Assembly (NCBI GenBank): GCA_016215405.1
Contig: JACRJQ010000007.1
Location: forward strand, 150,298 to 214,297
DNA from: Candidatus Tayloriibacteriota bacterium
Lineage (GTDB): Bacteria > Patescibacteriota > Minisyncoccia > Phycocordibacterales > UBA6065
Reading direction: 5' to 3'
DNA: 64,000 bases
Shown here: one piece after another, positions 34,115-62,303 of the stretch
How the letters are laid out: the number at the start of each line of letters is the position of its first letter
How positions within the stretch are numbered: the stretch's first letter is position 1
The notes under the pieces: model-generated
Told to the model about the DNA's origin: nothing
What the model saw: only the letters and a program-made list of their open reading frames with translations
Databases searched by the model: none
Made by a program: the position numbers and the translations under genes

Positions 34115-34186
34115 GGTGGCTAGAGAGAATCGAACTCTCGATATCGGTTCCACAAACCGAAGTTTTACCACTAAACTATAGCCACC
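34115..34186 (-). tRNA. tRNA-His (anticodon GUG) with the extra 5' G-1
   Basis: GGTGGCTA...anticodon loop UUGUGGA...GAGTTCGATTCTCTCTAGCCACC. Confidence 0.85.
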
Positions 34187-34349
34187 ATATTTACCGAGTC
34201 AGCCGAATCTTTATAGCAGATTTAGCCTGAAAAATCGAGGATTCGGAAGAAGAGAGGCCTTGAGTGTAAGAATTTATGAAGACTTTCCCTCGACTCGAAT
34301 TTCGGCAGCGCGCACAAATGAAAAGAGGCCTTGCGGCCCTTTTCATTTG

Positions 34350-34433
34350 TGCGCGGGAGAGGACTTGAACCTCCATGCCTGTGAAGGCGCTACCACCTCA
34401 AGGTAGTGCGTCTGCCAATTTCGCCACCCGCGC
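34350..34433 (-). tRNA. tRNA-Leu (anticodon GAG), long variable arm
   Basis: GCGCGGGTGGCGAAATTGGCAGACGC...CUACC-UUGAGGU-GGUAG...long variable arm...GGTTCAAGTCCTCTCCCGCGCA. Confidence 0.85.
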
Positions 34434-34485
34434 ATTTCGAACTTGCCAAGGCATAATAGCCGAAAGCCTCCTTATTTTCAAGCTC

Positions 34486-34510
34486 AAAAGAAAAAACCCG
34501 CTTTCGCGGG
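34486..34510 (-). terminator. rho-independent terminator downstream of rplS
   Basis: Minus strand ccccgc-gaaa-gcgggg followed by TTTTTTC. Confidence 0.6.
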
Positions 34511-34517
34511 GATTTCC

Positions 34518-34949
34518 TTATTTCGCTGCGACAGGGGCTTCTGCGGCCTCCTCCTTCTTCGGCGACTTCACCACATCGGTGTTGCCTCCCTTTACGGATC
34601 GGAGATTTCGCATCTGGCGGCGGATCTCCTTTGCTGCCTTCTCGCGGACGAAGTAGAGCTTCGAGCGGCGGACCTTCGAGCGGCGAATGATCTCGATCTC
34701 GTCTATCGTCGGGGAGTAGAGCGGGAATATCCTCTCTACGCCGATGCCGTCGACCGACTTTCGGACGGTAAACGTAGCGCCGGCCTCGTCGCCGTGCTTC
34801 CTCGAAAGGATGAGTCCCTCGAACGCCTGGAGTCGGGTCTTATCGCCTTCCTTGATCTTCTGCCATACGCGGACGGTGTCGCCGGAACGGAGCTCGAGCT
34901 TTCGGCGAGCTTCCATGTCTATAGGCGATGTGACTACTTTGCTTTCCAT
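34518..34949 (-). CDS. rplS: 50S ribosomal protein L19 with Lys-rich C-terminal tail
   Basis: [32 protein letters not shown]...TFTVRK L19 signature. Confidence 0.9.
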
Positions 34950-35070
34950 GAGTTTCTATTAATTAACGTGGTCGTTAATCTAACATAACGGCCCGAAATG
35001 AGCAAGAAAATCGGCGTTTTCTTGAAAATGTGGGCGAAATAGGCTATCGTTCATCTGTTTCCCGCTATAT

Positions 35071-35143
35071 GCGCCCTTAGCTCAGTTGGTAGAGCAGCTC
35101 ATTTACACTGAGAAGGTCGGGGGTTCAAGTCCCTCAGGGCGCA
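35071..35143 (+). tRNA. tRNA-Val (anticodon UAC)
   Basis: GCGCCCTTAGCTCAGTTGGTAGAGC...anticodon loop UUUACAC...GGGGGTTCAAGTCCCTCAGGGCGCA. Confidence 0.85.
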
Positions 35144-35152
35144 CAAATTTGA

Positions 35153-43548: not shown

Positions 43549-45297
43549 CTATTCGGTTACGACCCTTAGCACCTCTTCTATGGTCGTGAGGCCTTGAGCC
43601 GCGCAGAATATGCCGTCTTCGAGCATGGTGACCATCCCCTCCTTCTTCGCCTGCTCCTCTATCGCAGCGGAGGTCGAACCCTTCATGATGAGCTCGCGGA
43701 TCGTCGGCGTCATCTTGAAGACCTCATGGATGCCGATACGGCCCTTATATCCGTCGTTTTCAGGCGTCGCCTTGGGCGAACCGAACATGACGTTGTCCCA
43801 GCCGTCTTTAGGACCTATGATCTTCTCCGCCCGAAGGAGCTCGAGCATACGGTCGAGGTTCACGACCTTGGAGAGAGCCCCGAGCTCGGCCTTGGAAAGG
43901 GCGCGGCGCTCCTTGTTATCGGCGAGCCTGCGGACGAGGCGCTGTCCGATCACCACAGAGAGCGTCGAGACGAGAAGGAACGGCTCTATCTTCATGTCCA
44001 TGAGGCGAGGGATCGCTCCGGCAGCCGAGTTCGTGTGAAGGGTCGAGAGCACGAGGTGTCCGGTGAGCGCGGCATTCACGGCCAGAGACGCCGTCTCGTT
44101 GTCGCGGATCTCACCCACCATGATGATGTCCGGGTCTTGGCGGACGAGAGAGCGAAGCCCTGTCGCGAAGGTAAATCCGATGTCAGGACGGACCTGGGTC
44201 TGGTTCACGCGAGGCATCTGGTATTCGACAGGATCCTCGACGGTGGAGATGTTCACGTCGGGCGTATTCAAGATATCGAGGACAGTATAGAGCGTCGTGG
44301 ACTTTCCCGATCCCGTAGGGCCTGTCGCGAGGATCATTCCCGTCGCGAGCTTCGTCGCCGCGTGTATGCGCTCGAGGGCCTCGCCGTGGAAGCCTAGGTG
44401 CTCGAGCGTGAATCCCGAGACCGATTCGCGGAGAAGTCGCATCACGGTCTTCTCTCCGTAAAACGTAGGCATGACGGAAACGCGCAAAGACACCTTCTCG
44501 CCGTTCATCTCGACTTTGAATCGCCCGTCCTGAGGCAGCCTCTTCTCGTCGAGCTTAAGGTTAGAGAGCACCTTTATGCGGGCGGTTATAGAAGTCTCTG
44601 CCTGCTTAGGCAAGACCATCGCGTCATGGAGGAGCCCATCGATGCGATAGCGGACGAGGAGCTCCTTCTCCATCGGCTCGACATGGATGTCGGAAGCGCC
44701 CTGAAGGATGGCGTGCTTTAGGAGGGTGTCGACGATGCGCACGACAGGCAGGTCTTCAGCGAGCTTCTTAAGGTCACCTTCAGACGCTTTGCCCCCGACC
44801 TCTTCAGAGAGAGCCTTGATGCTCGCGGTCTCCTGCTTTATGAGGTCGCCGAACTCGGCCTTGAGGCTCTTTTGGTACTGAAGGAGCGCCGATTTTATCG
44901 AATCGGTATCGGTGAGCCGAGGGAGGATCCGCAGGCCGACCTTCTTCTTTATGAAATCGATGGCGTGCAGGTCGTCGGTGTCGAGCATGGCCACTTCGAG
45001 CGAATCGGGCGTCTTCTTGAACGCGACGATATTGTGGTTCCTCGCGATAGGCTCGGGGATGAGTGAGAGCACGTCGAAATCTATCTTCTGGCCACGCAGG
45101 TCGACGAAGGGGATCCCGAGGATATACGCCTGCATCTTTCTGAGATCGTCCTCCGAGAGCTTGCCCTGAGAGACGAGTATCTCTCCGAGGCCGGTCTTCT
45201 TCGATCTCGCTTCGGTCTCGGCGACGGAGATGTCCTTCTTCGAGACGAGGCCCGAATCGACGATGAAACTCTTCAGCTGGCTTTCCTCGATGTACAT
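43549..45297 (-). CDS. pilB: type IV pilus assembly ATPase PilB (GspE family)
   Basis: Walker A GPTGSGKST, Asp box, Walker B, His box (LSTLHTN); N-terminal GSPII domain; 582 aa. Confidence 0.92.
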   Translation of the reverse strand: MYIEESQLKSFIVDSGLVSKKDISVAETEARSKKTGLGEILVSQGKLSEDDLRKMQAYILGIPFVDLRGQKIDFDVLSLIPEPIARNHNIVAFKKTPDSLEVAMLDTDDLHAIDFIKKKVGLRILPRLTDTDSIKSALLQYQKSLKAEFGDLIKQETASIKALSEEVGGKASEGDLKKLAEDLPVVRIVDTLLKHAILQGASDIHVEPMEKELLVRYRIDGLLHDAMVLPKQAETSITARIKVLSNLKLDEKRLPQDGRFKVEMNGEKVSLRVSVMPTFYGEKTVMRLLRESVSGFTLEHLGFHGEALERIHAATKLATGMILATGPTGSGKSTTLYTVLDILNTPDVNISTVEDPVEYQMPRVNQTQVRPDIGFTFATGLRSLVRQDPDIIMVGEIRDNETASLAVNAALTGHLVLSTLHTNSAAGAIPRLMDMKIEPFLLVSTLSVVIGQRLVRRLADNKERRALSKAELGALSKVVNLDRMLELLRAEKIIGPKDGWDNVMFGSPKATPENDGYKGRIGIHEVFKMTPTIRELIMKGSTSAAIEEQAKKEGMVTMLEDGIFCAAQGLTTIEEVLRVVTE

Positions 45298-45371: not shown

Positions 45372-46100
45372 ATGACACATACCACCCACAAGGAAGAATG
45401 GCTCGCCATGCCAATCGCCGTTATCATCGCCGGAGGCCTCATCGCCTTAGGCCTCTTCTACGGCCTTAAGTCTTCAGGATCGCCCGCGCAAGGGGACGCC
45501 GTCGCGCAGAACCCTCAGCAAGGGCTCGGCGAGGATTTCACGGGCGAGCTCGCTCCGGTGAGCGCTTCGGAGCATATCCGCGGCAACCCGAAGGCGAAAG
45601 TCGTCATCGTCGAGTACTCGGACACCGAGTGCCCGTTCTGCAAGATGTACCACAACTCGATGAAGGAGGTGATGTCGAAATACGAGTCGTCAGGCGACGT
45701 GGCGTGGGTATACCGCCACTACCCTATCGACCAGCTCCATAAGAAGGCGCGAAAGGAGGCGGAAGCGACCGAATGCGCTGCGGAGCTCGGTGGAAATACG
45801 AAATTCTGGGCCTATATAGACAGGCTCTTCGAGGTGACCACCTCGAACGACGGCCTCTCGGAGAGCGAGCTTCCTAACATCGCCCAGTATGTGGGCCTCG
45901 ACAGGACGGCCTTTACGAGCTGCCTATCGAGCGGCAGGACAGCGGCGAAGGTTCAGGCGCAGTTCGACGGCGGAGCGAAAGCAGGGGTCAGAGGTACTCC
46001 TCATAGCTTCATCGTCACGAAGGACGACAAAGTAGCCCTCAGCGGCGCGGTCCCGTTCGCAGAGCTCGACAAGATGATCCAAAACGCTCTCTCGAGATAA
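45372..46100 (+). CDS. DsbA-like thioredoxin-fold thiol:disulfide oxidoreductase (membrane-anchored)
   Basis: N-terminal TM, CPFC active site (YSDTECPFCKMYH), Thioredoxin_4-like pattern. Confidence 0.8.
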   Translation: MTHTTHKEEWLAMPIAVIIAGGLIALGLFYGLKSSGSPAQGDAVAQNPQQGLGEDFTGELAPVSASEHIRGNPKAKVVIVEYSDTECPFCKMYHNSMKEVMSKYESSGDVAWVYRHYPIDQLHKKARKEAEATECAAELGGNTKFWAYIDRLFEVTTSNDGLSESELPNIAQYVGLDRTAFTSCLSSGRTAAKVQAQFDGGAKAGVRGTPHSFIVTKDDKVALSGAVPFAELDKMIQNALSR

Positions 46101-46111
46101 TTCGAAGATAG

Positions 46112-46156
46112 CCATACACATAAAAACCGGCCGTGCGGCCGGTTTTTATGTGTATG
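46112..46156. terminator. bidirectional terminator (21-bp-arm perfect palindrome)
   Basis: ccatacacataaaaaccggcc-gtgc-ggccggtttttatgtgtatgg. Confidence 0.75.
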
Positions 46157-46166: not shown

Positions 46167-46781
46167 CTACTCTACGGTCACGTATATACCGCCGGCGACA
46201 GGAGATGATCCATCCAGCTCGTGCCACGCGACACGCGCCTTATCGCCCCTCTCCAGCATAGACACGTCGATTCTGTCGACCTTCGTCGCGACGATACCCT
46301 CGCCTAGCGTAAAGGTCCTTTCGACGCCGCCTTCGTCTCTAAGGGTCAAATCTCTCCCCGAGACCAGGGTCGCGTTTCCCACGAAGAACCAATCGTCGCT
46401 ATCGCGAACGGCGGGCACGACACCGCTCTCTCCCACCCAAATCGAGACAACGTCCTTCGTCACAGGATTCGTTATGACACTCACGACGTCGCCTGACTCT
46501 AGCTTTTCAAGAGGCACGATCGCGATCTTGAATGCTACCGTGCTCGATGAGAGCGAGTAGGCCTTTTCCCGGCCGTCCGAAAGGCTAATGGTGATCGAAA
46601 CTCGATCGATAGACGCGACCGTCCCCATATCGTCTCCTCCCCTCGCCTCAGAGACAGAGCTCTGCGGTCCCGCCTCGGTATCCGTCTCGCGAGCCGACCG
46701 GTCTATCGAGACGTATGAGCCTAGGGAGACCGCGAGGAGGAGCGCTGTCGACGCTATTACCGCCTTTTTTCTGTTCGTCAT
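46167..46781 (-). CDS. hypothetical secreted protein
   Basis: Signal peptide, Ser/Val/Asp-rich, no motif recognised. Confidence 0.45.
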   Translation of the reverse strand: MTNRKKAVIASTALLLAVSLGSYVSIDRSARETDTEAGPQSSVSEARGGDDMGTVASIDRVSITISLSDGREKAYSLSSSTVAFKIAIVPLEKLESGDVVSVITNPVTKDVVSIWVGESGVVPAVRDSDDWFFVGNATLVSGRDLTLRDEGGVERTFTLGEGIVATKVDRIDVSMLERGDKARVAWHELDGSSPVAGGIYVTVE

Positions 46782-46827: not shown

Positions 46828-49107
46828 CTACGGACACCCGCTTACATAGCCGCAACTCTGATCCCAGTCGACGCATTCGTATGAGCAATTGCACTCGTAC
46901 CATTCGTAACCGTCGCTACACCAGCTGCAGACCTCATCGGAATTCACGCAATACGGTTCCCCGCACACATATCGGTCCGCCACGTTCGCCGGAGCCGAGA
47001 CCGAGCATGTGCCGGCGCAATTACGGGTTCCGCTATTCGTCTGGCCGCAATTGTTCGCAGACGAAGTGCAGGACTGGCCGTAATAAGACGGATCAGAAGC
47101 CGTGCACGAGCCGTATGCGTTCGTCGTCCCATAGATGCAACCGCCTGGAGAGGACCAACAATAGTAAGGCGCCTGCACGGCCGAGCCGTCGCCATTGACG
47201 CACCCTGTGCAGCCGTATGTTCCATAATTGCAGCCTGCGCCATTGCAGACCGAGCAGGACTGACCGTAATTCGAAGGGCTCTGCGCTGAACAATTGCCAT
47301 ATCCGTCGGTTAGACCGAAGGAGCACGCGCCTGGAGAAGACCAGCAGGTATAGGGCGCCTGCACGGCCGAGCCGTTAGGATTGACGCATGATCCGCCACA
47401 GTTATATGTTCCGTAATTGCATCCCATGCCGGTACACGCCGAGCACGACTGGTTATAGTTCGCTGCGCAGCATGACTGGGTATTGCAGGCCTGAGAGCTC
47501 GCCGGCGGCAGCATCATCGTGCAGATTCCCCCTTCTTCGTACACCCCATCGTCCCGAAGGCAGCGCACCGTCCTCGTCTGAGTGCCGCCTCCGCAGGAAG
47601 CCGAGCAAGACGACCAGCCGCCCAGCTCCCAAGAATAGGAGTGTGCGACCCAGCATGAGCCGTTCGAATAGGGCGTAGATCCCCATGAACCGTTATAGCA
47701 GGTAGACGTCCTCGATACGGACGAGCAGCTCGACGGCCAATAGACATAGCTCGATGAATACGTCGTGCACGACCCCCCGTCAGACACGGTCCCGCAAGCG
47801 CTCGAATAGCACGAGCAGCCTTGGGTATTGCAGCTCTGGCTCGTCGAAGGCTTCCCTCCTCCGCAGTAGGAGTCGGATACGGATATTCCGTCGCTGCGCT
47901 CGCACCACACGCCCCTCGATTGGCTGCCTCCTCCGCAGGACGCCGAACATGATCCCCAGCCGTCGTAATTCCAATAGTAGTCATAGCCGACCGAGCACGA
48001 ACCGTTCGGATAGGGCGATGCGCTCCAAGAGCCGTTACTGCAAGTCGAGGTGCGGGAAACAGACGAACACGACGAAGGATAGCTGACAGAGCTCGAAGAA
48101 TACGAGGTGCAGGAAGCGCCGTTCGACGCGGCGGAGCATGCGCCGGAGGCGCTGCAGCCGCTTGAGCAGCTGCCATAAGCGTACGGAGAGGCGCTCCACG
48201 TGCCGTCGCTACAGGTGGAGGTGCGTGCAACCATAGAACATGAGGCTCCCGACGGAGCGGTCGAAGAATAGGTCGTGCAGGATCCTCCATGCGCGGTCGT
48301 ACCGCAGCCGCCCGAAGCGGAGCAGGACCTGTAGCTCTGAGAGCAAGAGCTGTAGGCCCCCGGCGTCACGGTCCATGCCCCGTTCGAGCACGTAGACGAG
48401 ATAGACGCGCCCGAGCAGGTGGCAGGAGACGTCGCCGAGCTCGCGGTGTAGCTCGTGCAGGAAGCGCCGTTCGACGCGGCGGAACATGCGCCGGAGGCGC
48501 TGCAGCCGCTCGTACAACTGCTGTATACATATGGCGACGCGCTCCATGTACCATCGCTACAGGTAGAGACCCGAGAGACCGTGGAGCACGATGCGCCCGA
48601 AGGGGAATTCGAAGAGTATGTGGTGCAGCTTCCGCCATGAGCCGTCGTGCCGCAGCCGCCCGAGGGCGCGCATGAGCGATAGCCCTGCGAACAAGAGCCG
48701 TAAGCGGCGGGAGTGACGGACCATGCCCCTCCTACGCACGTCGCCGTCACTGATATCGCCGCGCACGTGGTGGGAGACGTTGCCGAGCTCGCGGTGTAGC
48801 TCGTGCATGTGCTTCCCAAGGCAGCGGCGGCGCACCCCCCTGACGCAGCGCACCCGCAGGGAGATTTCGTCACTCCTGTAGGGAGGTGGTCATAGAAGGA
48901 GGCCCATTCTTCTGCCGTCTTCGTAGGGATAAATATCCTGCTCCCTGTATCGTTTGTTATGACATAGCATGTCCCGATCTCGTTCACCGAGATAGCCGAA
49001 CCTGCATTTAGAGAGTACGACGTCGCCGCGTCGGATGCCGTAGCAACTGCAAAAAGAGAGAGGCATAGCGCCAGGCCTTTCGCGATCGCGGCTATTTTAG
49101 TTGGCAT
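46828..49107 (-). CDS. large Cys-rich secreted repeat protein with thrombospondin-type-1-like (TSP1) repeats
   Basis: Signal peptide (MPTKIAAIAKGLALCLSLFAVATA); two or more ~45-aa Cys modules (GGCGTTAHGGSCTTYSS...); two TSP1-like units WGSCSASCGGGSQSRGVWC and WSSCSASCGGGTQTRTVRC; nucleotide-level tandem repeats. The ORF extends to 49188. Confidence 0.6.
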   Translation of the reverse strand: MPTKIAAIAKGLALCLSLFAVATASDAATSYSLNAGSAISVNEIGTCYVITNDTGSRIFIPTKTAEEWASFYDHLPTGVTKSPCGCAASGGCAAAALGSTCTSYTASSATSPTTCAAISVTATCVGGAWSVTPAAYGSCSQGYRSCAPSGGCGTTAHGGSCTTYSSNSPSGASCSTVSRVSTCSDGTWSASPYVYSSCTSGCSASGACSAASNGASCTSYTASSATSPATCSGASISSTCSNGAWTVTPGAYSSCSQSYRSCSASGGCGTTAHGGSCTTYSSTAPSGASCSMVARTSTCSDGTWSASPYAYGSCSSGCSASGACSAASNGASCTSYSSSSVSYPSSCSSVSRTSTCSNGSWSASPYPNGSCSVGYDYYWNYDGWGSCSASCGGGSQSRGVWCERSDGISVSDSYCGGGKPSTSQSCNTQGCSCYSSACGTVSDGGSCTTYSSSYVYWPSSCSSVSRTSTCYNGSWGSTPYSNGSCWVAHSYSWELGGWSSCSASCGGGTQTRTVRCLRDDGVYEEGGICTMMLPPASSQACNTQSCCAANYNQSCSACTGMGCNYGTYNCGGSCVNPNGSAVQAPYTCWSSPGACSFGLTDGYGNCSAQSPSNYGQSCSVCNGAGCNYGTYGCTGCVNGDGSAVQAPYYCWSSPGGCIYGTTNAYGSCTASDPSYYGQSCTSSANNCGQTNSGTRNCAGTCSVSAPANVADRYVCGEPYCVNSDEVCSWCSDGYEWYECNCSYECVDWDQSCGYVSGCP

Positions 49108-49261
49108 CTGTTTTCCGTTATCTACGCTTGCTGCCTTGATAATCCCCAACCTCAGCTCTGAAGGGATCCAGAGCTTGCGACAAGGCACGAGCCCTCACAA
49201 TGAACATTATATACCAATAGTTTCGAAAAATTGAAACTATCGGCGGACAGCCGGCCGAAGG

Positions 49262-49627
49262 CTACTCGACGACGCTTATGGTACCGCGTATCCGAGGCTT
49301 GAGATGGTCGTGGTAAGTCCACTCGCCTGCTTCTTCGAACACGAACTCCCATTCCTCTCCTGGGCCTACGGGCTCTCGCGGATCGAACTCGGGGTAGAGC
49401 TCGTGCGTAGGATGCAGGTTCGAGGCGGGCCAAAGGTAGGCGTCGTCGGTAGCGTTCACGAACCTCACCGCCTCGCCTCGCTTGATGGTCGTCGTTGCTG
49501 GAGAGTAGCCTTTCTCCGTCATGGACATGACAGCGCCCACTCGAACATCTCTGTCTGAAAGGAGCGATGCCCCGAGAGCAGATGCCGCCGCAAGGGTTAA
49601 CAAGGCGATGACCAGCTTCTTACGCAT
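49262..49627 (-). CDS. secreted cupredoxin-like domain protein
   Basis: Signal peptide; ...RFVNATDDAYLWPASNLHPTHE...GEEWEFVFEEAGEWTYHDHLKPRIRGTISV, shared with the N-terminal domains of the genes at 52182 and 54780. Confidence 0.55.
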   Translation of the reverse strand: MRKKLVIALLTLAAASALGASLLSDRDVRVGAVMSMTEKGYSPATTTIKRGEAVRFVNATDDAYLWPASNLHPTHELYPEFDPREPVGPGEEWEFVFEEAGEWTYHDHLKPRIRGTISVVE

Positions 49628-50108
49628 GCTTTTTCTTGAGAAAGAGAATGATAAGGGCTCCTACGACCGCGCCCAGAAGAGCAGAGGCGGATGCGACGAG
49701 AAAAGAAGCCTTAGATCCTTCAGGCGCCCCCACCGAAAACGGAAACTCTCCTTCGGCTATCGTCTCGGAGCCGTCCTGAAATCGCACGAAGAGCGAGTAC
49801 GACCCTTCTTTCGGAAAGACGATGCTGAATCCGGGCTTTCCGAATTCTCCGTAGGCGATCGGCCCGGCAAAAACGGTTTTCTTCCCTTCCTCTATCTTCA
49901 CCCAAGCGCTCGTGAAAGGGATCTCGTCCCCTCCAGAGGCGGGAGAGACCGCGATGTCATACCGGACGAGCTCTCCGGCCACCGGCTCTTGGCTATAGCC
50001 GATATCGAACTTGTGGTCTCCGACGACCGTCTCTATAGAAGGCCCTCCGGCGTGAGCGAAAGCGAAGACCGGTACAAAAGCGAGCAAGAAGAGAGAAGCT
50101 TTTTTCAT
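49620..50108 (-). CDS. hypothetical secreted protein with C-terminal TM anchor
   Basis: Signal peptide, beta-rich body, C-terminal hydrophobic helix plus KKKHA. Confidence 0.45.
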   Translation of the reverse strand: MKKASLFLLAFVPVFAFAHAGGPSIETVVGDHKFDIGYSQEPVAGELVRYDIAVSPASGGDEIPFTSAWVKIEEGKKTVFAGPIAYGEFGKPGFSIVFPKEGSYSLFVRFQDGSETIAEGEFPFSVGAPEGSKASFLVASASALLGAVVGALIILFLKKKHA

Positions 50109-50244
50109 TCGCCTATTCTAGCCTATTTTCAAATCTGCGGGTATTTGAAGCGCCTTAGCCCTTACCTTGCGGCAGGTGAGATGTACCGTATAATTATCGG
50201 GACGTCTAGGCTTAGATTATTAATAAGGTCTGACGCGATCTTGA

Positions 50245-50820
50245 ATGCAAAATAGCAAAAAAGCCATCATCGTCGTTCTATTACTAGCAATCGCCGGTCT
50301 AGGGTACGCGGTGTACTCTAGGCAGGCTGCGCCGGAAGCTCCGACAGCCCAGGTTCAGAACGAGAACCCTACGCCTGCCGGAAACGTCGACGCGACGGGA
50401 GTGAAGGAACAAGCCGCCTCCGCCTCGAAAGTCTCCCTCGCTGAAGTGAGGAAGATCCTAAGCGACAGGGGAGCCAGCCCGACAAAGGAGGCGCTCGACA
50501 GATTCTCCACGAGCGTAACGGCGGCAGCGGTGAGGTCGAGCGTCCTCGATATCTCTGGCTGCGTCGCGACGCCTAACGTGATCGAGGTCTTCGCCGGAGA
50601 GCCGTTCACCGTGAAAAATACCGACAACTTCCCGCACGTGATCCATTACGGCGGAAAGAACCCTGAAACTATCCCTGGGAGCACGGAAAGGAAGATCACC
50701 CTCGAGTTCCCGAACGCGGAGAAAGGCGTTGCTGGAGTCATGTCTCCTTTTACCTGCGACACGGACAAGACTGAGGAGCCTATCGGCATATTCAGCGTAG
50801 TCCCCCGCTCAGACGAATAG
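50245..50820 (+). CDS. membrane-anchored protein with C-terminal small beta-sandwich (cupredoxin/azurin-like) domain
   Basis: CVATPNVIEVFAGEPFTVKNTDNFPHVI...FTCD resembles the C-terminus of the gene at 58454 (CVANPTVAMVAFGQKITFVNDD...GYGCDASQRAIGM). Confidence 0.4.
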   Translation: MQNSKKAIIVVLLLAIAGLGYAVYSRQAAPEAPTAQVQNENPTPAGNVDATGVKEQAASASKVSLAEVRKILSDRGASPTKEALDRFSTSVTAAAVRSSVLDISGCVATPNVIEVFAGEPFTVKNTDNFPHVIHYGGKNPETIPGSTERKITLEFPNAEKGVAGVMSPFTCDTDKTEEPIGIFSVVPRSDE

Positions 50821-50832
50821 CTCTAGCCACGA

Positions 50833-50858
50833 AAAATCCCCCGCTTGGGGGATTTTTC
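50833..50858. terminator. bidirectional rho-independent terminator
   Basis: aaaaatccccc-gctt-gggggattttt. Confidence 0.75.
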
Positions 50859-50879
50859 ATTTCGGCTTCTTCGATAAGG

Positions 50880-52145
50880 CTATCGGGGCGCTTTCGCGTG
50901 GCACTTGTCTTTCCAAGGATCCGGAAGGGCGCCGCAGAACGCGTAGAAGGCATCGCTCCCGGCATGGAAATTATATGTGGAATACTTGAGAAGCTCGAGA
51001 TAGCAGAGATTCTCCGGGTCGTTCGGCGCGGCGCGAGCGCAGAGCGAAGCGGACGCCGCGCTGTTTCGATAGTCTGTCTCTATGATCCTCGATGCTGCCT
51101 GCGCGAAGCAATTGCCCCGAAACTCCCTCGGCATCCCCTCGCAATAGCTCGCGATTTTATCTTCGTCGAATCCCATCTGAGAAGTGAATACGTACATGAG
51201 GGCGTTAAAGCACCTCTGTCTCTCGGGTTCGGCCGGGAGCGCTTCGCAGTGCGCGATGAGGTTATTCGGCTCGAAAAGCTCTTTTCTGAAGAGCGGCCAC
51301 GACTCCGACCAGCACGAGCCCCTTTCACGTCCGCTGTAGCCGCCGCAGAACGCCTCCACCTTATCGAGGCCCACCTCCTTTCCTTCTATGAGAGCGAAAT
51401 CGTCTGGTTCGAGAGGCTGGAATATCTGCATGAACGCGCCGTCGAAGCAGAGCTGGGAAAAATCCCTCGTGCCTTTGAAGGCGAGCTCCTTGCACAACGA
51501 AAGGGAGCGGTCGATATCGGCGTCGGTCACGTACATGAATAGATGGCCTAAGGCGTGATAGCAGCTCGCCTGCTCGAGGCCGGTCGGGGAGAATCCTTCG
51601 CGCCTCTCGCACACGCTCGCGAATTGAGGCTTATACTTCTCGATCTCCTCTGGAGAGAGCGATTCGCGCCTGAACCTCTCCTGGAACGCTCCGTGGATGC
51701 AGCCGTTCGAGCAGACTCCCGAAGGGCACCTCTGTATCACCGTTTGCCACAGATCGGGATCCTTAGCGGTCTCCTTGGCCGAGAGCTTGTGTCCGAGGAC
51801 GTGGCAATACCGATAGCTCGTATCGATGTCTTGGACGATTCTCGTTACCTCGAACGCTTCCTCCATAGATATCTCGTCCATAAGCTTCGGAAGCTCCTCG
51901 TCATAGCAAGTCGGCTTGTACGAGGCGCCAGCACACTCCTCGACGACGCTTTGCGCGTACGAGACGAAATCTCCATGCTCTTTTCGAGAGGGACCTCCGG
52001 AGAGAAGGACCGCGAGCTCGAAGCAGACGAGCGTAGCGAGGACGAGAGCTGTCGCCGGAAAAACCGCTTTCTTCCCTTTCGGAAGCCTTTGAGTGAGCGG
52101 ATGAAAGCGCTTCATGAGCGCATGCATTCTTTTATGGGTATTCAC
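50880..52145 (-). CDS. Cys/His-rich repeat protein, paralogue 1 of an unrecognised extracytoplasmic family
   Basis: N-terminal TM; repeated motifs YCHVLGHKL, SCYHALGHLF, QLCFDGAF, QRCFNAL, NLCYLEL. Confidence 0.55.
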   Translation of the reverse strand: MNTHKRMHALMKRFHPLTQRLPKGKKAVFPATALVLATLVCFELAVLLSGGPSRKEHGDFVSYAQSVVEECAGASYKPTCYDEELPKLMDEISMEEAFEVTRIVQDIDTSYRYCHVLGHKLSAKETAKDPDLWQTVIQRCPSGVCSNGCIHGAFQERFRRESLSPEEIEKYKPQFASVCERREGFSPTGLEQASCYHALGHLFMYVTDADIDRSLSLCKELAFKGTRDFSQLCFDGAFMQIFQPLEPDDFALIEGKEVGLDKVEAFCGGYSGRERGSCWSESWPLFRKELFEPNNLIAHCEALPAEPERQRCFNALMYVFTSQMGFDEDKIASYCEGMPREFRGNCFAQAASRIIETDYRNSAASASLCARAAPNDPENLCYLELLKYSTYNFHAGSDAFYAFCGALPDPWKDKCHAKAPR

Positions 52146-52181
52146 AGCAAGATTATAGCGTACCGGAGACTGAGAGTCTGC

Positions 52182-53639
52182 TTAGGGCTTATAGCAGTCT
52201 TCCCTGCGCAGAGGATCGACTCCGGAGCAGATCGCCTTCTGCTTCTCTTTTGAATAGTAGGCCCGCACGCTTCCGAACGCCGCTTCATAGCAAGAGTCCT
52301 GCTCCCCTTTCGACATTCCCGGGGTCTCGCAGAACGCAATCGCCGCTTCATATTCTCTCCCTGGCGGCCCGAACTCCATAAGCCCCGAAGGTATTCCTTG
52401 GACGCACGGGACGACGAGGTCTTCTCTCGCAGCCTTACAAGAGCGCACCGTAGACTCGAATTCGTCCTCGTAGGGCTCTTTGAAATTCGACGGAAAGACC
52501 CCCGAAAGACTTCTCATCGCGAGCGCCGAATACTGGAGATCGTCTTCGATCTCTTCGACGTATTCTATGGCGCGGGATAAGTCGCTGTTAGAGAGGGTGG
52601 CGACGAGAGTGTTCATCTCCTGGTAGCACGGATTCTTCACCCGAAACTCCTTCCAGTTTTTGCACACCTCGAACGGCCCCCTATCGTCGAGCGACAGATT
52701 ATAGGAGCGCTCGATGAACATGAGCGCGATCGAGTTAAAGACGCCGGAGACGCACCTATAGAAATGAGGCTCAGTGGGATCAACCTTGTTACAGAGAGCG
52801 ATGCCTGGAGAGGCGAGAGCTACAGGATCTCCCCACGCGCGCGGGTCGCCTCCGTCTGCAGCGCCGTGCCCTATGCCGTGGTAGCAGGCCCCTTCTGCGT
52901 TAGCGCTCTCCGAAGCGAGGAGCTTCCCTGCCTGCGCGCAGAACTCCCTCGCCCCGTCGACGTCTCCGGATATCTGGAGCATCTCTTCCATGAAGCCGTG
53001 ATAGAAGCCATAACTGCAATACGATGTCTTCGCGGAAAGCTTTATCTCTTTACCCTCGTCGAAGGCGAGATAGGCGCTCTTGCCGAGGATGTGGGCGACG
53101 GAGTGGCATGAATCCCGAAACCTCGGATCGGTATCGTAGAGCTCGGCCATACGGTCAAGCGCGGCGTCGAGGCCGCCTTTTTTAAGAGCTGCGACGACGT
53201 CTGCTTGAAAGCATTCCCCGGGCGTCGAGCTGGCCGATTTGCAATCAGGCACGACAACCTTGCCTGTCGAGCTTAAGACCACGATCTCTCCCGTCTGCCG
53301 CGAGGCTAGATGGTCATGGAATTTCCATATGCCGGGCTTTTCGAAAGAGAACGACCAAGACCCTCCTGCCTCGACGGGCATCTTGGGGTCGAATTGCGAA
53401 TATATGCCATGGCTCGGATGGAGATCGGATGCCGGCCAGAACGGATTATCCGACTCGTTGCGGAAAGTCACTCTATCGCCAAGGGACACCACAAGCCTTC
53501 TCGGCGAAAATCCGCTAGCGTCATAGGCTATCTCTCTCGTCTTCGAGAGAGAAAAATCGTCTCTGCTTAAGACGAGATAGGCGGCGATCGCCGAGATCGC
53601 GAGGACGAGGATGGTTGCACCGATGAGGGCTTTGCGCAT
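52182..53639 (-). CDS. Cys/His-rich repeat protein, paralogue 2, with N-terminal cupredoxin-like domain
   Basis: TM, then ...FWPASDLHPSHG...GIWKFHDHL..., then SCHSVAHILG, YCSYGFYHGF, GACYHGIGHGA, NPCYQEM, SCYEAAFG. Confidence 0.6.
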   Translation of the reverse strand: MRKALIGATILVLAISAIAAYLVLSRDDFSLSKTREIAYDASGFSPRRLVVSLGDRVTFRNESDNPFWPASDLHPSHGIYSQFDPKMPVEAGGSWSFSFEKPGIWKFHDHLASRQTGEIVVLSSTGKVVVPDCKSASSTPGECFQADVVAALKKGGLDAALDRMAELYDTDPRFRDSCHSVAHILGKSAYLAFDEGKEIKLSAKTSYCSYGFYHGFMEEMLQISGDVDGAREFCAQAGKLLASESANAEGACYHGIGHGAADGGDPRAWGDPVALASPGIALCNKVDPTEPHFYRCVSGVFNSIALMFIERSYNLSLDDRGPFEVCKNWKEFRVKNPCYQEMNTLVATLSNSDLSRAIEYVEEIEDDLQYSALAMRSLSGVFPSNFKEPYEDEFESTVRSCKAAREDLVVPCVQGIPSGLMEFGPPGREYEAAIAFCETPGMSKGEQDSCYEAAFGSVRAYYSKEKQKAICSGVDPLRREDCYKP

Positions 53640-53648
53640 TATCGTTAT

Positions 53649-54698
53649 TTATATGATGATCTCCGATTGTTCGAGGCAGTACGCATTCTCCGTCGCGGCA
53701 AGGCCCTGGCACGGCTCGCCCTTCCGCTCTCGCGAAGTCGGCTCCGCGAAAAAAGACCACGCCGCGCCGGCTCGGCACAGAAGCTCGCCTTCTCTGTCGG
53801 GCATCTTCGAGCACGCGGCGATCGATCTGACCGCGTCATACCTCTCATTTGCCCCGATCGAATTTCCGAGGCCTTTATAGCACGCCTCCCTCTCGCGCCC
53901 CGAAGGCGCGAGAGCGCAGAATTCTCCCGCTCTGGCCTGATCGCCCCCGAAGACGTTCATAAGCCATGCGGGCAATTCAAAATAGCAGGCCTCCGCGTAT
54001 GGTTTCGGTACCGAATCGCACGGGTAAAGGGGTCTCGAGGCGTCGAACTCCCGAGGCTCTGCCCCCTCGAGGCTCTGCATGGTCCGAAAGTTATATTCCA
54101 TAAAGACGCCCGATGTGCACCCGCCGATAGGCCCTTTCCATGAGAGCTTTCCGCAGATATCGAGCGCCTCGACGAGAGCGTCCTCACCCAGAAAACCGAG
54201 CACGCCGTGCCCTATCCCGTGCGGGCACCCGAGCCCTTTCGGGCCCCACTTCTTCACGCACTCTTTATCGAGCTCGAACACGACGTCAGGGCCGTTCTCC
54301 GTTATCGCCTTGCCGAAAAAGCTGTGATAGCAGCCGAAGGCGAAAGCGCTGTCGCAAACAGCGACTCCTGCAATGCCCTCTTTCTCATAGATAAGCTCTC
54401 CCATGATATGCGCGAGCGTGTGCGCTACGCCGAATTCCTTATCCTTGTTGCCCTCTTTGAAGAGCTCGTAGGCCCTTTCCGCTCCTTTATCCTCTATCTC
54501 CTTCTTCCAAAGCCTCTTCTCCTTGGTGTAATGGCCGGACCAGAGAGGATTGAGGGAGTCTTCGGGCCTTGCGTCCGCGCCTTCGCCCCGTATGAGGATC
54601 GAGGCCTCGAAGGCGACGATCGCGATAAGAGCGAGAGCGACGGAGATGAAAACCCTATGCGATGAAGCCCTTCGAAGCATGCGAGAGACAAATGACAT
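53649..54698 (-). CDS. Cys/His-rich repeat protein, paralogue 3
   Basis: VCDSAFAFGCYHSFFG, GCPHGIGHGV, GCTSGVFMEYN, EACYFELPAW, EACYKGLG. Confidence 0.6.
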   Translation of the reverse strand: MSFVSRMLRRASSHRVFISVALALIAIVAFEASILIRGEGADARPEDSLNPLWSGHYTKEKRLWKKEIEDKGAERAYELFKEGNKDKEFGVAHTLAHIMGELIYEKEGIAGVAVCDSAFAFGCYHSFFGKAITENGPDVVFELDKECVKKWGPKGLGCPHGIGHGVLGFLGEDALVEALDICGKLSWKGPIGGCTSGVFMEYNFRTMQSLEGAEPREFDASRPLYPCDSVPKPYAEACYFELPAWLMNVFGGDQARAGEFCALAPSGREREACYKGLGNSIGANERYDAVRSIAACSKMPDREGELLCRAGAAWSFFAEPTSRERKGEPCQGLAATENAYCLEQSEIII

Positions 54699-59029: not shown

Positions 59030-59746
59030 ATGCGCGCAATGAACCATCTCCTCCGTCGACTCTTTCCACACGCCGAGGCCTGGCTCACACCTGCGGCGAT
59101 CGTGCTAGGCTCGATCATCATCGCCTCGAGCATAGCCTTAAGCGGCGAAAAGAGAACGATCCCTCCGCAGCCTGGACGCGAGCCTGTCACGACCCTCAAG
59201 ATACCCGCCCTCAATCCCTCAGACCACGTCTTGGGAAATCGAAATGCCCCTGTGATCATGATCGAGTACTCCGATACCGAATGCCCGTTCTGTAAACGCT
59301 TCCATTCTACTCTCCAAAAGATAATGAAAGAGTACGGGAGCGAAGGCGATGTCGCTTGGGCCTTCCGTCACTTTCCGGTACACAAGAAGTCCATGAAAGA
59401 AGGACATGCTCTCGAGTGCGCCGCCGAACTTGGAGGAAACGAGGTGTTCTGGAAATACGCCGACCGGATATTCGAAGAGACCTCCTCGAACGACAGCCTC
59501 GATCTCGGCCTCCTGAGGCCTTTTGCGGCCGATCTCGGCCTTGACGTCGAGGCTTTCGGCGAATGCCTCGAAAGCGGGAAATACGATGAGAAGATGACCG
59601 ATCAGAGGAGCGAGGCCGACGCTGCGGGAGCAAAAGGAACGCCATGGACAGTCATAGTCTCTAAGGGGCGATGGATCCCCCTCAACGGAGCGGTGCCGTA
59701 CGAGACCGTCGAATCGATCGTAAAAGAAGCCCTCCGCGCGCGCTAA
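59030..59746 (+). CDS. DsbA-like thioredoxin-fold thiol:disulfide oxidoreductase, paralogue 2
   Basis: TM, then YSDTECPFCKRFH...GDVAWAFRHFPV; strongly similar to the 45372 gene product. Confidence 0.8.
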   Translation: MRAMNHLLRRLFPHAEAWLTPAAIVLGSIIIASSIALSGEKRTIPPQPGREPVTTLKIPALNPSDHVLGNRNAPVIMIEYSDTECPFCKRFHSTLQKIMKEYGSEGDVAWAFRHFPVHKKSMKEGHALECAAELGGNEVFWKYADRIFEETSSNDSLDLGLLRPFAADLGLDVEAFGECLESGKYDEKMTDQRSEADAAGAKGTPWTVIVSKGRWIPLNGAVPYETVESIVKEALRAR

Positions 59747-59756
59747 GAGAGGAAAT

Positions 59757-60437
59757 ATGAAAGAACCGAGCATCATCGTCCCTTTCCATAACGAAGAAGG
59801 GTGCGTGGCGTTCGTCATAGAGGAGATCCTTCGGGAATTCCCCGATGCTGAGATCGTGGCGATAGACGACGGCTCCACCGATCGCACGAGGGAGATCCTC
59901 AAGAGGTTCGAGCGCGTGCGCCTCATCGCCTTCGAACAGCGGCTCGGCCAAAGCGCGGCTCTTTGGGCCGGCCTTCGAAAAGCGACTCGTGAGATATGCG
60001 TCCTTATGGATGGGGACGGAGAGAGCGATCCGAGGGACATACGCGCGCTCCTGAAGCTCCTCGATACGAACGACTTCGCATGCGGCTACCGTATCGGACG
60101 GCAAGACGGCGCGATGAAACGGATAGCCTCAGCGGCGGCGAACAGGCTTCGCAAAGCCGTCACGAAGGACTCCGCCAAAGATACGGGCGCGATGAAAGCG
60201 ATACGAAGAATCCACGCGCCGCATCTCGTCCCCTTCGAAGGCATGCATCGGTTCGTGCCCGCCCTTTTACAGGGAGCAGGGCTCACATTGGGACAAGCGC
60301 CGGTCAGAGCGCGAAGACGCTACGCCGGAAAGTCGAAATACGGCATATGGGATAGAGCGAGAAGAGGGCTTTTAGACCTTATGGGAGTAAAATGGATCAT
60401 GTCGAGAAGGATCGACCCTAACAAAAGCGATGAATAG
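59757..60437 (+). CDS. family-2 glycosyltransferase (polyprenol-phosphate sugar synthase, DPM1/GtrB-like)
   Basis: IIVPFHNEE...AIDDGSTD...D-x-D GT2 signatures; 226 aa. Confidence 0.85.
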   Translation: MKEPSIIVPFHNEEGCVAFVIEEILREFPDAEIVAIDDGSTDRTREILKRFERVRLIAFEQRLGQSAALWAGLRKATREICVLMDGDGESDPRDIRALLKLLDTNDFACGYRIGRQDGAMKRIASAAANRLRKAVTKDSAKDTGAMKAIRRIHAPHLVPFEGMHRFVPALLQGAGLTLGQAPVRARRRYAGKSKYGIWDRARRGLLDLMGVKWIMSRRIDPNKSDE

Positions 60438-60729
60438 CGTCTTATTCGCAGTATCGGGGATACAGGTGACGATATGGACCGTGACAGGGCTCGCCGGCGC
60501 CGCGCTTTTCGCGTCTCGATGGGTCGTGCAGGTCTTTCATTCAAAGGCCTACGGAAGCTCTTCGATCCCTCCGCTTTTTTGGTATATGAGCGCGGCCGGA
60601 AGCGTCCTTCTCATCGCGTATTTCTCGTTCGGAGCGAGAGACCTCGTCGGAGTCGCCTCGAACGCGCTCCCCCTCCTCGTATCTTCGTACAACCTATATC
60701 TCGTATGCAAAGAAAGAGCAAAAAGATAG
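60430..60729 (+). CDS. lipid-A-biosynthesis N-terminal domain-like (LAB_N) small membrane protein
   Basis: FASRWVVQ motif, three TM segments, classic position after a GtrB-like GT2. Confidence 0.55.
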   Translation: MNSVLFAVSGIQVTIWTVTGLAGAALFASRWVVQVFHSKAYGSSSIPPLFWYMSAAGSVLLIAYFSFGARDLVGVASNALPLLVSSYNLYLVCKERAKR

Positions 60730-62303
60730 CGGCTGCGGTCCTCGCGTCTATAGCCATCGGAGCGATAGGTTACTTCGTCTCGAGGGAGAGCGCCCTCCTG
60801 TCGGAGACAGAGCGGGACGCGGCGCTGTCAGCGGAAGCAGTAAGTAGGGTGCGGTCGTTCCTCGACTACACCGTCTCCTCCATAGACCCTGAAACCAGCC
60901 TGTTTCCGCGCGACCGGGCGGGCGCCATCTGGGCGCCGCGCGATAACGCCGCTGATGACTATCCTTACGCAGTGATAGCGGCGAAGCTCTTTGGAAAAGA
61001 GGATGACTTGCACGCGCTCGAACGCGTCCTCGAATCGGAGAGATCCGTCACCATTCGCGAAAACGGCCTTGTAGACGATTACGATTTCGACAAAGGGCGA
61101 TTCTTCCTGCCTCGCGACCCAGAGAGGTTACTGTTAAATAACGCCGAGTACGCCAAAGACGGACTCCTTCCTATAGTGGATGCCCTCGGAAAGGATTCGC
61201 CGTGGACCGAGCGCTTGATCTCGATCATCGATTCGATCTGGGATGCGAAACAGCTCTGGAGCTCCGAGACCTTGCCTTCATCGCGGCTCGAGACGAACGG
61301 CGATCTGCTTCAGGTCCTCTCACGCCTCTACTGGCTCACCGGCGACGAAGAATATCTCGAAAAAGCGAGAGGTATCGCGGACCATTATCTCCTCACGGAA
61401 CCTTTGGTCGCGTCGGGAACCCCTCTCCAGCTCAGAGACCACGCGAACGAGGTCATAGTCGGCCTCTCCGAGCTCTATTTCGCCTTCGACCATGCGGACA
61501 AAAACAAGACGGTTCTCTATCGAAAGCCTCTTCGCGACCTCTACGAAGCCGTGCTCGAGGAAGGTAGGACCGACGAGGGGCTCGTACTCTCATCGGCTGG
61601 AGGCGACGCTCTCACGGATAACTGGGGCTATATCATGAACGCCATACGAACAGTCGCGGATATCGAAGACGACGAAGGATATCGGGCCGAGACCGTCCGA
61701 ACAGCAGAAGCCGTCGCGAGCCTCGGCGAACGCGTCTGGGAAGAAAGATATCCTTTCGATGGATACGCTGACACCATCGAGAGCGCCATCATGACGCTCT
61801 CTTACTACCCAGCCCCACCCCTCTTCTCCTGGGTCGCCGAGAATATGGAAAGGCTCTGGAAACTCGAAGACAGCCTCGTCTCGAAGGGCCCCAACTATCT
61901 GTATGGGAATGTCGCTCGCACGAACATGCTGTATGCGCTCATGAAATCGAAAGGCTTCACCCTCGAGCCTTGGCCGGAGAACGGCGGATTGGCGGCGAAA
62001 AGCGGCGAAGACGGGATCGAGCTCTTCATATATCTGCCTCCAGGCTCTGAATGGAAAGGGATTCTCAAAGCTTCGCCTGCGCGCCATTCGACCATCTGGA
62101 GTATGCCGTCGAACTATCCTCGAATCAACGCGCTTTTGGAATGGTTCGTCCCGAATGCAGATGTCGAATACGCGCTCTCGAGTGGCCCCGCCTCCGAGCG
62201 ATCAAAGGTGACGGGCGCCCGCCTGCTCGAGGGCGTCGCTCTCGAACTGAGCGAAAGCGGCGTTATAGAGATAGCGCCTGCGAGGCTCGGTCAGAATCGA
62301 TAG
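60705..62303 (+). CDS. hypothetical membrane-anchored protein, probably all-alpha (possible (alpha/alpha)6-toroid hydrolase-like)
   Basis: Start at MQRKSKK (TM). The upstream 77 ORF codons overlap the LAB_N gene and were rejected. Function not recognisable. Confidence 0.4.
   Translation: MQRKSKKIAAAVLASIAIGAIGYFVSRESALLSETERDAALSAEAVSRVRSFLDYTVSSIDPETSLFPRDRAGAIWAPRDNAADDYPYAVIAAKLFGKEDDLHALERVLESERSVTIRENGLVDDYDFDKGRFFLPRDPERLLLNNAEYAKDGLLPIVDALGKDSPWTERLISIIDSIWDAKQLWSSETLPSSRLETNGDLLQVLSRLYWLTGDEEYLEKARGIADHYLLTEPLVASGTPLQLRDHANEVIVGLSELYFAFDHADKNKTVLYRKPLRDLYEAVLEEGRTDEGLVLSSAGGDALTDNWGYIMNAIRTVADIEDDEGYRAETVRTAEAVASLGERVWEERYPFDGYADTIESAIMTLSYYPAPPLFSWVAENMERLWKLEDSLVSKGPNYLYGNVARTNMLYALMKSKGFTLEPWPENGGLAAKSGEDGIELFIYLPPGSEWKGILKASPARHSTIWSMPSNYPRINALLEWFVPNADVEYALSSGPASERSKVTGARLLEGVALELSESGVIEIAPARLGQNR

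Follow-up and report, generated by a model that had tools for sequence, protein, structure and literature searches.

A cysteine-rich protein with thrombospondin type-1 repeats as a candidate surface stalk or adhesin of a Patescibacteria bacterium

We have analysed a gene for a cysteine-rich secreted protein with thrombospondin type-1 (TSP1) repeats in a 64,000-nucleotide stretch of contig JACRJQ010000007.1 from a Candidatus Tayloriibacteriota bacterium (hereafter the window, to which all coordinates refer unless a locus is named), and find that its 759-amino-acid (aa) product has a disulfide-type architecture of about 13 small domains with mostly even numbers of cysteines (Cys). Alignments place this protein as an expanded member of an uncharacterised family whose N-terminal head domain is constant, whose middle is variable and in which only some members retain a C-terminal Cys knot. 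The best explanation, which we judge somewhat better than even, is that the product is a Sec-exported, oxidatively folded surface stalk or adhesin. Sec export, cleavage of the signal peptide, disulfide formation, docking of the head, an adhesive function and its ligand are what we infer.

According to this proposal, the protein would leave the cell of a Patescibacteria (Parcubacteria/Paceibacterota) bacterium through the Sec pathway and fold oxidatively outside it. The head would dock to a partner (in most relatives, probably a secreted S74-type fibre whose gene lies just upstream), and a series of rigid beads would hold the distal part away from the cell. A ligand on a second cell would then be bound by the TSP1 units, by the C-terminal Cys-rich region or by both; we presume that the bacterium is an episymbiont and that this second cell is its host. 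The predicted domains run in the order head, five 6-Cys modules, TSP1, sixth module, TSP1, two 8-Cys repeats, one 4-Cys CGQT repeat and knot:

46828..49107, minus strand: coding sequence of the 759-aa Cys-rich secreted protein (translation and Cys count; stop codon TAG at 46828-46830)
49036..49107, minus strand: Sec-type signal peptide, aa 1-24, MPTKIAAIAKGLALCLSLFAVATA then SD (read by eye; presumed cleavage site)
48856..49020, minus strand: N-terminal head domain, aa 30-84, 2 Cys, family-defining (alignments A4 and A5)
47995..48852, minus strand: five tandem 6-Cys modules M1-M5, aa 86-371, ~53 aa each, A and B subtypes alternating (module alignment)
47815..47982, minus strand: TSP1 repeat a, aa 376-431, DYYWNYDGWGSCSASCGGGSQSRGVWC...CNTQGC, 6 Cys (PF19030, 46.6 bits, E 4e-12)
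47653..47811, minus strand: 6-Cys module M6, aa 433-485, between TSP1 units a and b (module alignment)
47470..47640, minus strand: TSP1 repeat b, aa 490-546, SYSWELGGWSSCSASCGGGTQTRTVRC...CNTQSC, 6 Cys (PF19030, 51.3 bits, E 1.4e-13)
47086..47460, minus strand: two 8-Cys repeats, 'CxC...GCNYGTY...CWSSPGxC', aa 550-674 (direct repeat D2, spacing 186 nt, 73%)
46978..47085, minus strand: one copy of a 4-Cys repeat, 'YGQxCTSxANxCGQTNSGTxxCxGxCS', aa 675-710 (repeated in relatives)
46831..46977, minus strand: C-terminal Cys knot, 9 Cys, aa 711-759, DRYVCGEPYCVNSDEVC...YECVDWDQSCGYVSGCP (shared with relatives P0137 and P0191)

The gene is a single long open reading frame (ORF), 46828..49188 on the minus strand, which gives 786 aa when counted from a GTG at 49188. 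We take the ATG at 49107 as the likely start because the relatives P0105 and P0137 (P numbers are protein cluster hits and L numbers loci in this analysis) open alike, with a signal peptide followed by the '..SSY..' head layout. A reading of the same DNA made from the sequence alone (the sequence-only reading) had proposed a secreted Cys-rich protein of about 760 aa with a Cys-dense C terminus, and both points stand: the 759-aa product has a Sec-like signal peptide (an h-region, A-T-A, then SD) and 81 Cys (10.7%), 30 of them within aa 547-759. Serine makes up 21% of residues, and serine and threonine together 31%. Inspection of the N terminus found neither a lipobox nor a prepilin motif. A type IV pilin or pseudopilin was rejected as an identity for the protein, as the N terminus is Sec-type and lacks the class III G|F-T-L-x-E prepilin signal. 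An exact-sequence lookup found no identical entry for the protein, and no other gene of the window carries the modules listed above.

The gene is a genuine resident of a bacterial genome. Its GC content at third codon positions (GC3) is 0.68, compared with 0.67-0.78 in housekeeping genes and 0.41-0.46 in a defence island of the window, so that its composition matches the genome and marks it as resident. A TATAAT near 49206-49211 was found by eye in the upstream intergenic region.

The mature protein holds 80 Cys and has a net charge of -15. By part, there are two Cys in the head, six in each 6-Cys module and each TSP1 unit, eight in each CxC repeat and four in the CGQT repeat, while the nine of the knot together with Cys547 make ten, an even total. 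The combination of a signal peptide, even Cys counts and an adjacent gene for a DsbA-like thiol-disulfide oxidoreductase supports an extracellular, disulfide-bonded protein. We also considered a metal-binding or redox protein whose Cys bind copper or other metals. Cupredoxin-like genes do lie just upstream (49262-49627 and 52182-53639), and P0094, a distant TSP1 protein, has a MopE copper-binding domain. However, the Cys counts are even in most domains and overall, their spacing is fixed and disulfide-like, and the first and third Cys of the module (C1 and C3) co-vary; thrombospondin repeats (TSRs) are themselves disulfide domains, DsbA is adjacent, and the cupredoxin genes are not found beside relatives. 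We therefore regard metal binding as very unlikely.

Both repeats are, on profile evidence, genuine TSP1 repeats. The segments quoted by the sequence-only reading, WGSCSASCGGGSQSRGVWC and WSSCSASCGGGTQTRTVRC, lie at aa 384 and aa 498, and each unit, scanned singly, spans positions 1-55 of the 55 in PF19030 (TSP1_ADAMTS; curated cutoff 23.8 bits). The whole protein matches this family in Pfam at E 5.3e-19, in two stretches, and that search gave no second Pfam family. The TSP_1 family PF00090 (cutoff 21.6 bits), which the same reading had suggested searching, accepts unit b (29.2 bits, E 1.1e-6) but not unit a (15.8 bits). Thus the two claimed units stand, as full-length matches to PF19030, but their tryptophan spacing is W-x4-W, the ADAMTS type, and not W-x2-W as had been stated. 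Each has the core CSxSCGxG and a Q-x-R, with V-R-C additionally in unit b; TSR2 of thrombospondin-1 has more W/R layers than this W-x4-W plus Q-x-R pattern. In a phmmer search of PDB sequences, the THSD7A TSR (8oxr) aligns with a TSP1 unit. A profile of 26 prokaryotic TSP1 units matches THSD7A (7e-11), thrombospondin-1 TSRs (1e-9 and 7e-8) and also circumsporozoite protein in PDB, and the six Cys are invariant across the alignment of these units and line up with those of the THSD7A and thrombospondin-1 TSRs.

Finding an ADAMTS-type repeat in this protein raises the alternative that its TSP1 units were recently acquired from a eukaryote and bind eukaryotic matrix or receptors, which would be the host binding of the sequence-only reading taken in a eukaryotic sense. 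The unit sequence CSASCGGG fits the sequon C-x-x-S/T-C-x-x-G, which is the eukaryotic O-fucosylation motif matched by CSxSCGxG; POFUT2 and DPY19 are the eukaryotic enzymes of TSR glycosylation. Eukaryotic ADAMTSL, papilin and THSD4 are among the matches, and the TSP1 domain is best known from animals and apicomplexans (PMC3417536). However, the units are 55-71% identical to prokaryotic or metagenomic units (alignment A6, with a mean column identity of 62%), and ~30-48% identical to metazoan proteins. Gene composition matches the genome, relatives occur across many Parcubacteria loci with conserved bacterial neighbours, and the hosts of cultured Patescibacteria are bacterial (PMC10633639). A eukaryote-directed mimic is thus quite improbable.

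The head and the 6-Cys module appear to be two domain types with confident predicted folds and no described family. Across alignments A4 and A5, a C, a P, an E-W and a second C of the head are invariant and an N nearly so, at 22-48% identity to other members. Its AlphaFold2 model (predicted local distance difference test, pLDDT, 86.8) has a beta-sheet and one helix, and the domain has no Pfam match at E<=10 and no significant Foldseek match in PDB or in the predicted viral structures of BFVD. The module has four invariant Cys, while C1 and C3 are present together or absent together among homologs, which fits an extra disulfide. Modelled singly, M6 is predicted to be a small beta domain (pLDDT 94.5). 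The module has no Pfam match at E<=10, no significant PDB sequence match and no significant Foldseek match (best E 2.1, to a CCP-containing protein); searched as a profile, its 56-aa alignment had no match in a database of 5.8 billion proteins, the domain being too short for a database of that size. Two identities were rejected for the module: a degenerate TSR (hhalign of A1 against A6, probability 0.3%) and a Sushi/CCP domain, a likeness that is unsupported, with no PF00084 match and factor H at E about 8 when the module profile is searched against PDB.

The C-terminal part combines three further elements that recur in the family. The two 8-Cys repeats are 67% identical to each other in nucleotides and 70% in amino acids, and 60% identical to the same repeats of P0105; in Pfam, they have only a sub-threshold match to DUF6253. 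The CGQT unit belongs to no Pfam family and is repeated in the L081 ORF, P0105, P0191 and L085, with about 25 copies in P0150. The knot motif, DRYVC...YECVDW.QxCG..SGC, is common to P0137 and P0191, whereas P0105 ends differently. In BLAST comparisons, the CGQT repeats and knot are 48-50% identical over 141-156 aa.

A conserved C-terminal knot could also be read as the business end of a toxin or other secreted effector that is delivered to neighbouring cells. The knot would then be a warhead resembling disulfide-rich toxins or antimicrobial peptides, and the repeats its carrier. The knot is retained in several members while the middle varies, 6-Cys modules lie upstream of PT-HINT/Hint domains in P0025 and P0045, and in L083 a head/S74 gene pair has HipA and defence genes as neighbours on an apparent conjugative element. 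Yet neither the protein nor its neighbours carry a toxin, peptidase or immunity-gene signature in Pfam or NCBIfam, and a variable C terminus with a cognate immunity gene is not found, the knot being conserved and not polymorphic. We consider an effector improbable.

The DNA repeats underlying the modules are, on the evidence of their divergence, old duplications kept by selection on the protein. The sequence-only reading had described near-identical tandem units of ~130 nt that might mediate repeat-number variation; the units are neither near-identical nor ~130 nt long. Single units measure 171-174 nt and module pairs are 54-72% identical in DNA, M2 and M4 being the best pair (72% nt, 83% aa). 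Tandem Repeats Finder, the check it had proposed, reports one array only (48107-48807; period 348 nt, 2.0 copies, 77% matches), and this period corresponds to an A+B pair of 6-Cys modules. A direct-repeat search gives 69% identity at a spacing of 348 nt and 73% at 186 nt. As exact repeats in the gene reach at most 29 nt, such diverged units are a poor substrate for slippage, which is not favoured in this gene, and assembly collapse or expansion is unlikely. Copy number does vary between distant relatives, from ~13 modules in the L081 ORF to none in P0105 or P0137.

The same data bear on whether the region is a non-coding or mis-assembled artefact. Several long ORFs overlap the gene in other frames and on the other strand, and the homolog at L081 is covered by spurious ORFs and has an apparent frameshift. 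Against this stand one uninterrupted 2.3-kb frame, full-length profile matches, conserved Cys spacing and homologs that are 45-60% identical, and repeats with 54-72% DNA identity and no exact repeat above 29 nt make read-length collapse unlikely. We give an artefact almost no credence.

Relatives of the protein are numerous. A word-indexed search returned 98 matches and an exhaustive search 2602 cluster representatives at E<=1e-3, 103 of them at E<=1e-30, and most of the exhaustive-search matches come through the TSP1 units. Many of these are metagenomic proteins with bacterial signal peptides, lipoprotein-like or pilin N termini. The name 'thrombospondin type-1 domain-containing protein' is already carried in NCBI by Ca. 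Paceibacterota, Azospirillum and Woesearchaeota proteins, so the statement that TSP1 repeats are rare in bacteria is outdated. Named carriers include Ca. Paceibacterota (HEU5114492.1, which is P0105), Ca. Parcubacteria, an Azospirillum plasmid, Micavibrio, Woesearchaeota (DPANN) and Pseudobdellovibrio exovorus (13 modules); Micavibrio and Pseudobdellovibrio exovorus are epibiotic predators. In the literature searched, we found no papers on prokaryotic type-1 repeats and no experimental characterisation of the NCBI-named proteins; a 'giant genes' preprint concerns type-3, not type-1, repeats. No family relatives were found among 50,697 phage genomes or in IMG/VR, and a phage or viral origin was rejected on that ground.

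Members of the head family range from 0 to about 13 modules and from 0 to 2 TSP1 units. P0137 (225 aa) comprises signal peptide, head, TSP1, one repeat and knot, and P0191 (235 aa) comprises head, three CGQT repeats and knot. P0105 (490 aa) comprises head, TSP1, CGQT repeats and CxC repeats with a TSP1-like tail and no knot, and is 60% identical to aa 550-723 of the window protein. The closest full-length relative is an unannotated ORF, L081:17688-21020 (plus strand), with 47.6% identity over 679 aa (E 3e-92). It carries a single TSP1 unit, ~13 modules in an array of 9.1 copies of 168 nt, and the C-terminal repeats of the window protein. Over this ORF, the source annotation had called three antisense ORFs and one partial sense ORF. 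One of the antisense ORFs gives faint 'Olduvai' and 'SARA' Pfam matches, and the L081 copy has an apparent frameshift near its 3' end. This miscalling suggests that the Ser/Cys/Gly-rich family is likely under-represented in protein databases.

The building blocks are also shared beyond these members. The head precedes unlike passengers, such as 4-Cys modules and Gly-rich regions, and 6-Cys modules, 4-Cys modules and TSP1 units occur behind pilin-type N termini (P0002, P0011, P0022, P0106, P0086 and P0098), behind lipoprotein-like N termini and upstream of PT-HINT/Hint domains (P0025, P0045). The TSP1 units are 2 of about 13 small domains of the window protein and one of several interchangeable beads, and need not be the binding element.

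Genes of the head family tend to lie next to genes for S74-type fibres. Among the 13 loci with enough upstream DNA to be assessed, a Peptidase_S74 gene lies directly upstream of the head-domain gene, or one gene away in L084, in 11 (L081, L083, L084, L086, L088, L089 and L091-L095), the exceptions being the window and L087. In L092-L095, the pair forms part of a longer cassette that encodes, in order, a secreted protein of ~410 aa with GWAWS-type repeats, a membrane protein of ~100 aa, a secreted S74 protein, the head protein and a PMT_2 glycosyltransferase. L081 has the first four of these genes, with PMT_2 not called, and in L092 and L094 PMT_2 directly follows the family gene. The cassettes lie at:

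L092:291-5295, cassette of five genes
L093:4376-9678, cassette of five genes
L094:4546-9264, cassette of five genes
L095:1-4416, cassette of five genes
L081:13565-21020, first four cassette genes

Neighbours of the cassette include NusA (L081, L093 and L094) and GT4, GT2 and DsbA (L092 and L094), and family members in L091, L092 and L094 have DsbA genes nearby. The S74 proteins of L092-L094 carry a Shufflon_N-like segment. A pilin identity was rejected for the S74 partner: the Shufflon_N match covers profile positions 203-302, not the prepilin N terminus, and the proteins have Sec signal peptides. In L083, an S74 gene and P0071, a gene with head and 4-Cys modules, lie on an apparent conjugative element with a TraG-type coupling protein, ArdC, KlcB, HipA and a Gabija-like ATPase and helicase. 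The S74/head gene pair may therefore be mobile and not confined to the Candidate Phyla Radiation (CPR).

In the window itself, the gene is followed by three genes that also have counterparts at one related locus:

46167..46781, minus strand: 204-aa membrane-anchored ORF (orf204), downstream of the TSP1 gene and probably co-transcribed (ORF list)
45372..46100, plus strand: membrane-anchored DsbA-like thiol-disulfide oxidoreductase with CPFC, convergent (PF13462 E 7e-23, PF01323 E 2e-14)
43549..45297, minus strand: PilB-type type IV pilus assembly ATPase (PF00437 E 9e-121, MshEN)

A terminator-like hairpin at 46125-46144 closes the unit of the TSP1 gene and orf204, which has no Pfam match. The order at L091 is S74, P0105, a 218-aa ORF, DsbA, PilB, PilC and a pilin, matching the window's family member, orf204, DsbA (inverted in the window) and PilB; PilB and PilC of L091 are 88% and 66% identical to those of the window. 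Homology between orf204 and the 218-aa ORF of L091 was rejected as not significant (E 0.094), and the two are positional equivalents only. Genes for QueA, FolD and SIMPL also surround the TSP1 gene. The relatives of the window's PilB assign the window to Patescibacteria, Parcubacteria/Paceibacterota.

An attachment role is made plausible by what is known of cultured Saccharibacteria, members of the Patescibacteria whose epibiotic growth needs type IV pili and several adhesins according to transposon sequencing (PMC10633639). The host- or cell-surface binding suggested by the sequence-only reading is still the most reasonable inference, though it had been attached to the TSP1 units, which need not do the binding. 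Several observations weigh against a stalk or adhesin. For every family member, the proposed function draws on analogy between domains and on gene neighbourhood. No structural analogue hinting at a binding function was detected for the head or the module, and the mature protein has no recognisable cell-wall or membrane anchor. Each TSP1 unit has a net charge of -2, and such acidic units in a mature protein at -15 fit poorly with the classical TSR surface, a basic face that binds heparin or glycosaminoglycan. The 64-kb window holds no S74-like ORF (best E 0.4) and no homolog of the ~410-aa or ~100-aa gene, so that the proposed docking partner is missing within it. In addition, linkage to pilus genes has so far been seen only in the window and L091: among 80 PilB-anchored loci of other species (GTDB genomes, searched by tblastn with all parts of the protein), there was no TSP1 neighbour, only low-complexity noise.

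Some of the same properties would suit a passive structural spacer or coat, namely a stalk or surface layer that is rigid, resists proteases and may be glycosylated by PMT_2, with specificity residing in the S74 fibre or in pilins. Bead type and number vary freely among relatives (0 to ~13 modules, 0 to 2 TSP1 units), Ser and Thr account for 31% of residues, each TSP1 unit is acidic, and PMT_2 lies downstream of the family gene in L092-L095 and has a window homolog at 62291-63769. However, the 62% mean column identity in A6 suggests selection beyond bulk shape, M2 and M4 are 83% identical in protein but 72% in DNA, and the modules are also found on pilin-like and polymorphic-toxin-type (HINT) proteins, which one would expect to expose binding parts. 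We consider a purely passive role unlikely, and continue to favour a surface stalk or adhesin.

Extending the adhesin proposal from one protein to the cassette leads to a more tentative idea, which we regard as possible but doubtful: Parcubacteria and some other bacteria may have an undescribed fibre attachment system, to which the gene would belong and in which a secreted S74 trimer carries head proteins with host-recognising variable beads (TSP1, the 6-Cys module and CGQT repeats), a neighbouring DsbA folds them and the adjacent PMT_2 (GT-C) glycosylates them. If this is true, the number and type of beads would tune the reach and host range of uncultured episymbionts, and new domain families would be represented by the head and by two of the bead types.

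Other parts of the window can be described alongside these genes. Upstream of the TSP1 gene, 49262-54698 holds a run of small secreted or membrane proteins, several without a Pfam match, among them the cupredoxin-like genes (49262-49627 and 52182-53639) and a Cys-rich protein of 421 aa at 50880-52145 (4.8% Cys); this cluster was not seen beside relatives of the TSP1 gene. Further away, 59030-63769 encodes a second DsbA (59030-59746), a GT2 (59757-60437), a 609-aa ORF with a LAB_N-like start (60474-62303) and PMT_2 (62291-63769). In L092 and L094, the family cassette is flanked by most of these genes, and L093 has a match to the LAB_N-like gene. In the window they are found 10-13 kb from the TSP1 gene and have no S74 gene with them, the PMT_2 homolog being 13 kb away.

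The type IV pilus genes of the window lie mainly upstream of TIM-PGK, in a cluster (17352-23626) with PilC (20599-21810), PilM (22523-23626), three pilin-like genes (19158-20599) and a 598-aa protein with a pilin-like N terminus (17352-19148). PilB stands apart from this cluster, at 43549-45297, and ComEC is at 8767-10233. A low-GC island at 28000-34500 (GC 0.40-0.49 versus 0.57 elsewhere in the window) encodes an AbiL system (AbiLii 31626-32156, AbiLi 32165-33370), a SIR2-like protein (29087-30109) and a KAP-family NTPase (30057-31616), and adjoins tRNA-His, tRNA-Leu and tRNA-Val (34114-35144). We take it for a defence island that this CPR genome probably acquired by horizontal transfer. An Rfam tRNA match at 31511-31609 on the minus strand (99 nt, 55.6 bits; no call by ARAGORN) overlaps the start of the KAP NTPase ORF and could represent a tRNA with an intron or the remnant of an integration, derived from a tRNA.

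We know of no adhesin or host-recognition protein for Parcubacteria, a group for which, to our knowledge, there are no cultured representatives. The head family provides a concrete candidate, usually encoded beside a fibre gene, a glycosyltransferase and DsbA and, in this lineage, pilus genes. ADAMTS-type TSP1 repeats also emerge as a well-conserved prokaryotic population, which bears on the origin of an 'animal' adhesion module, and among their carriers are several lineages with a cell-attached way of life (CPR, DPANN, Micavibrio and Pseudobdellovibrio). The Ser/Cys/Gly-rich genes of the head family are easily mis-annotated. NCBI annotation already recognises TSP1-domain proteins in bacteria, one of them from a close CPR relative; what appears to be new here is the definition of the family, the putative module and head domains, which are undescribed, and the S74/head/PMT_2 cassette.

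The protein can be compared with several known systems. Its TSP1 units match the PF19030 profile over the full length and have the six Cys, the W-x4-W and the CSxSCGxGxQxR of eukaryotic ADAMTS, ADAMTSL, papilin and THSD7A repeats. Unlike ADAMTS, ADAMTSL and papilin, the protein has no reprolysin metalloprotease, disintegrin, Cys-rich spacer, Ig, Kunitz or PLAC domain in Pfam, its units are acidic and its host is bacterial; it thus shares a repeat type with the ADAMTS and papilin families and not membership. The apicomplexan adhesins TRAP and circumsporozoite protein likewise present a TSR on a secreted or surface protein of a small parasite-like cell, and the role of TSR adhesins in apicomplexan invasion has been reviewed (PMC3417536). 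The window protein differs from them in having no vWA domain, transmembrane helix or cytoplasmic tail, and the evolutionary context is unrelated.

The 6-Cys module (47653-48852) resembles Sushi/CCP domains in its length of ~55 aa, its all-beta fold and its ending TCxNGxWSxxPxxxxxC, which is like the CCP C-terminal motif, but Cys number and spacing differ, and the matches to factor H (E about 8), HpARI (E 2.1) and PAPP-A (E 6.2) are not significant. Phage-type fibres with a Peptidase_S74 intramolecular chaperone offer a likeness at the level of gene order, a fibre-plus-tip-style gene pair in 11 of 13 loci, whereas none of the predicted viral structures matches the head and the window has no S74 gene. 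The NCBI-named P0105 (HEU5114492.1) differs from the window protein in lacking the six 6-Cys modules, the second TSP1 unit and the knot, and in having an S74 gene upstream where the window gene has none. Both begin with a signal peptide and the head, carry an ADAMTS-type TSP1 unit together with CGQT and CxC repeats, and have an ORF, DsbA and PilB as gene neighbours.

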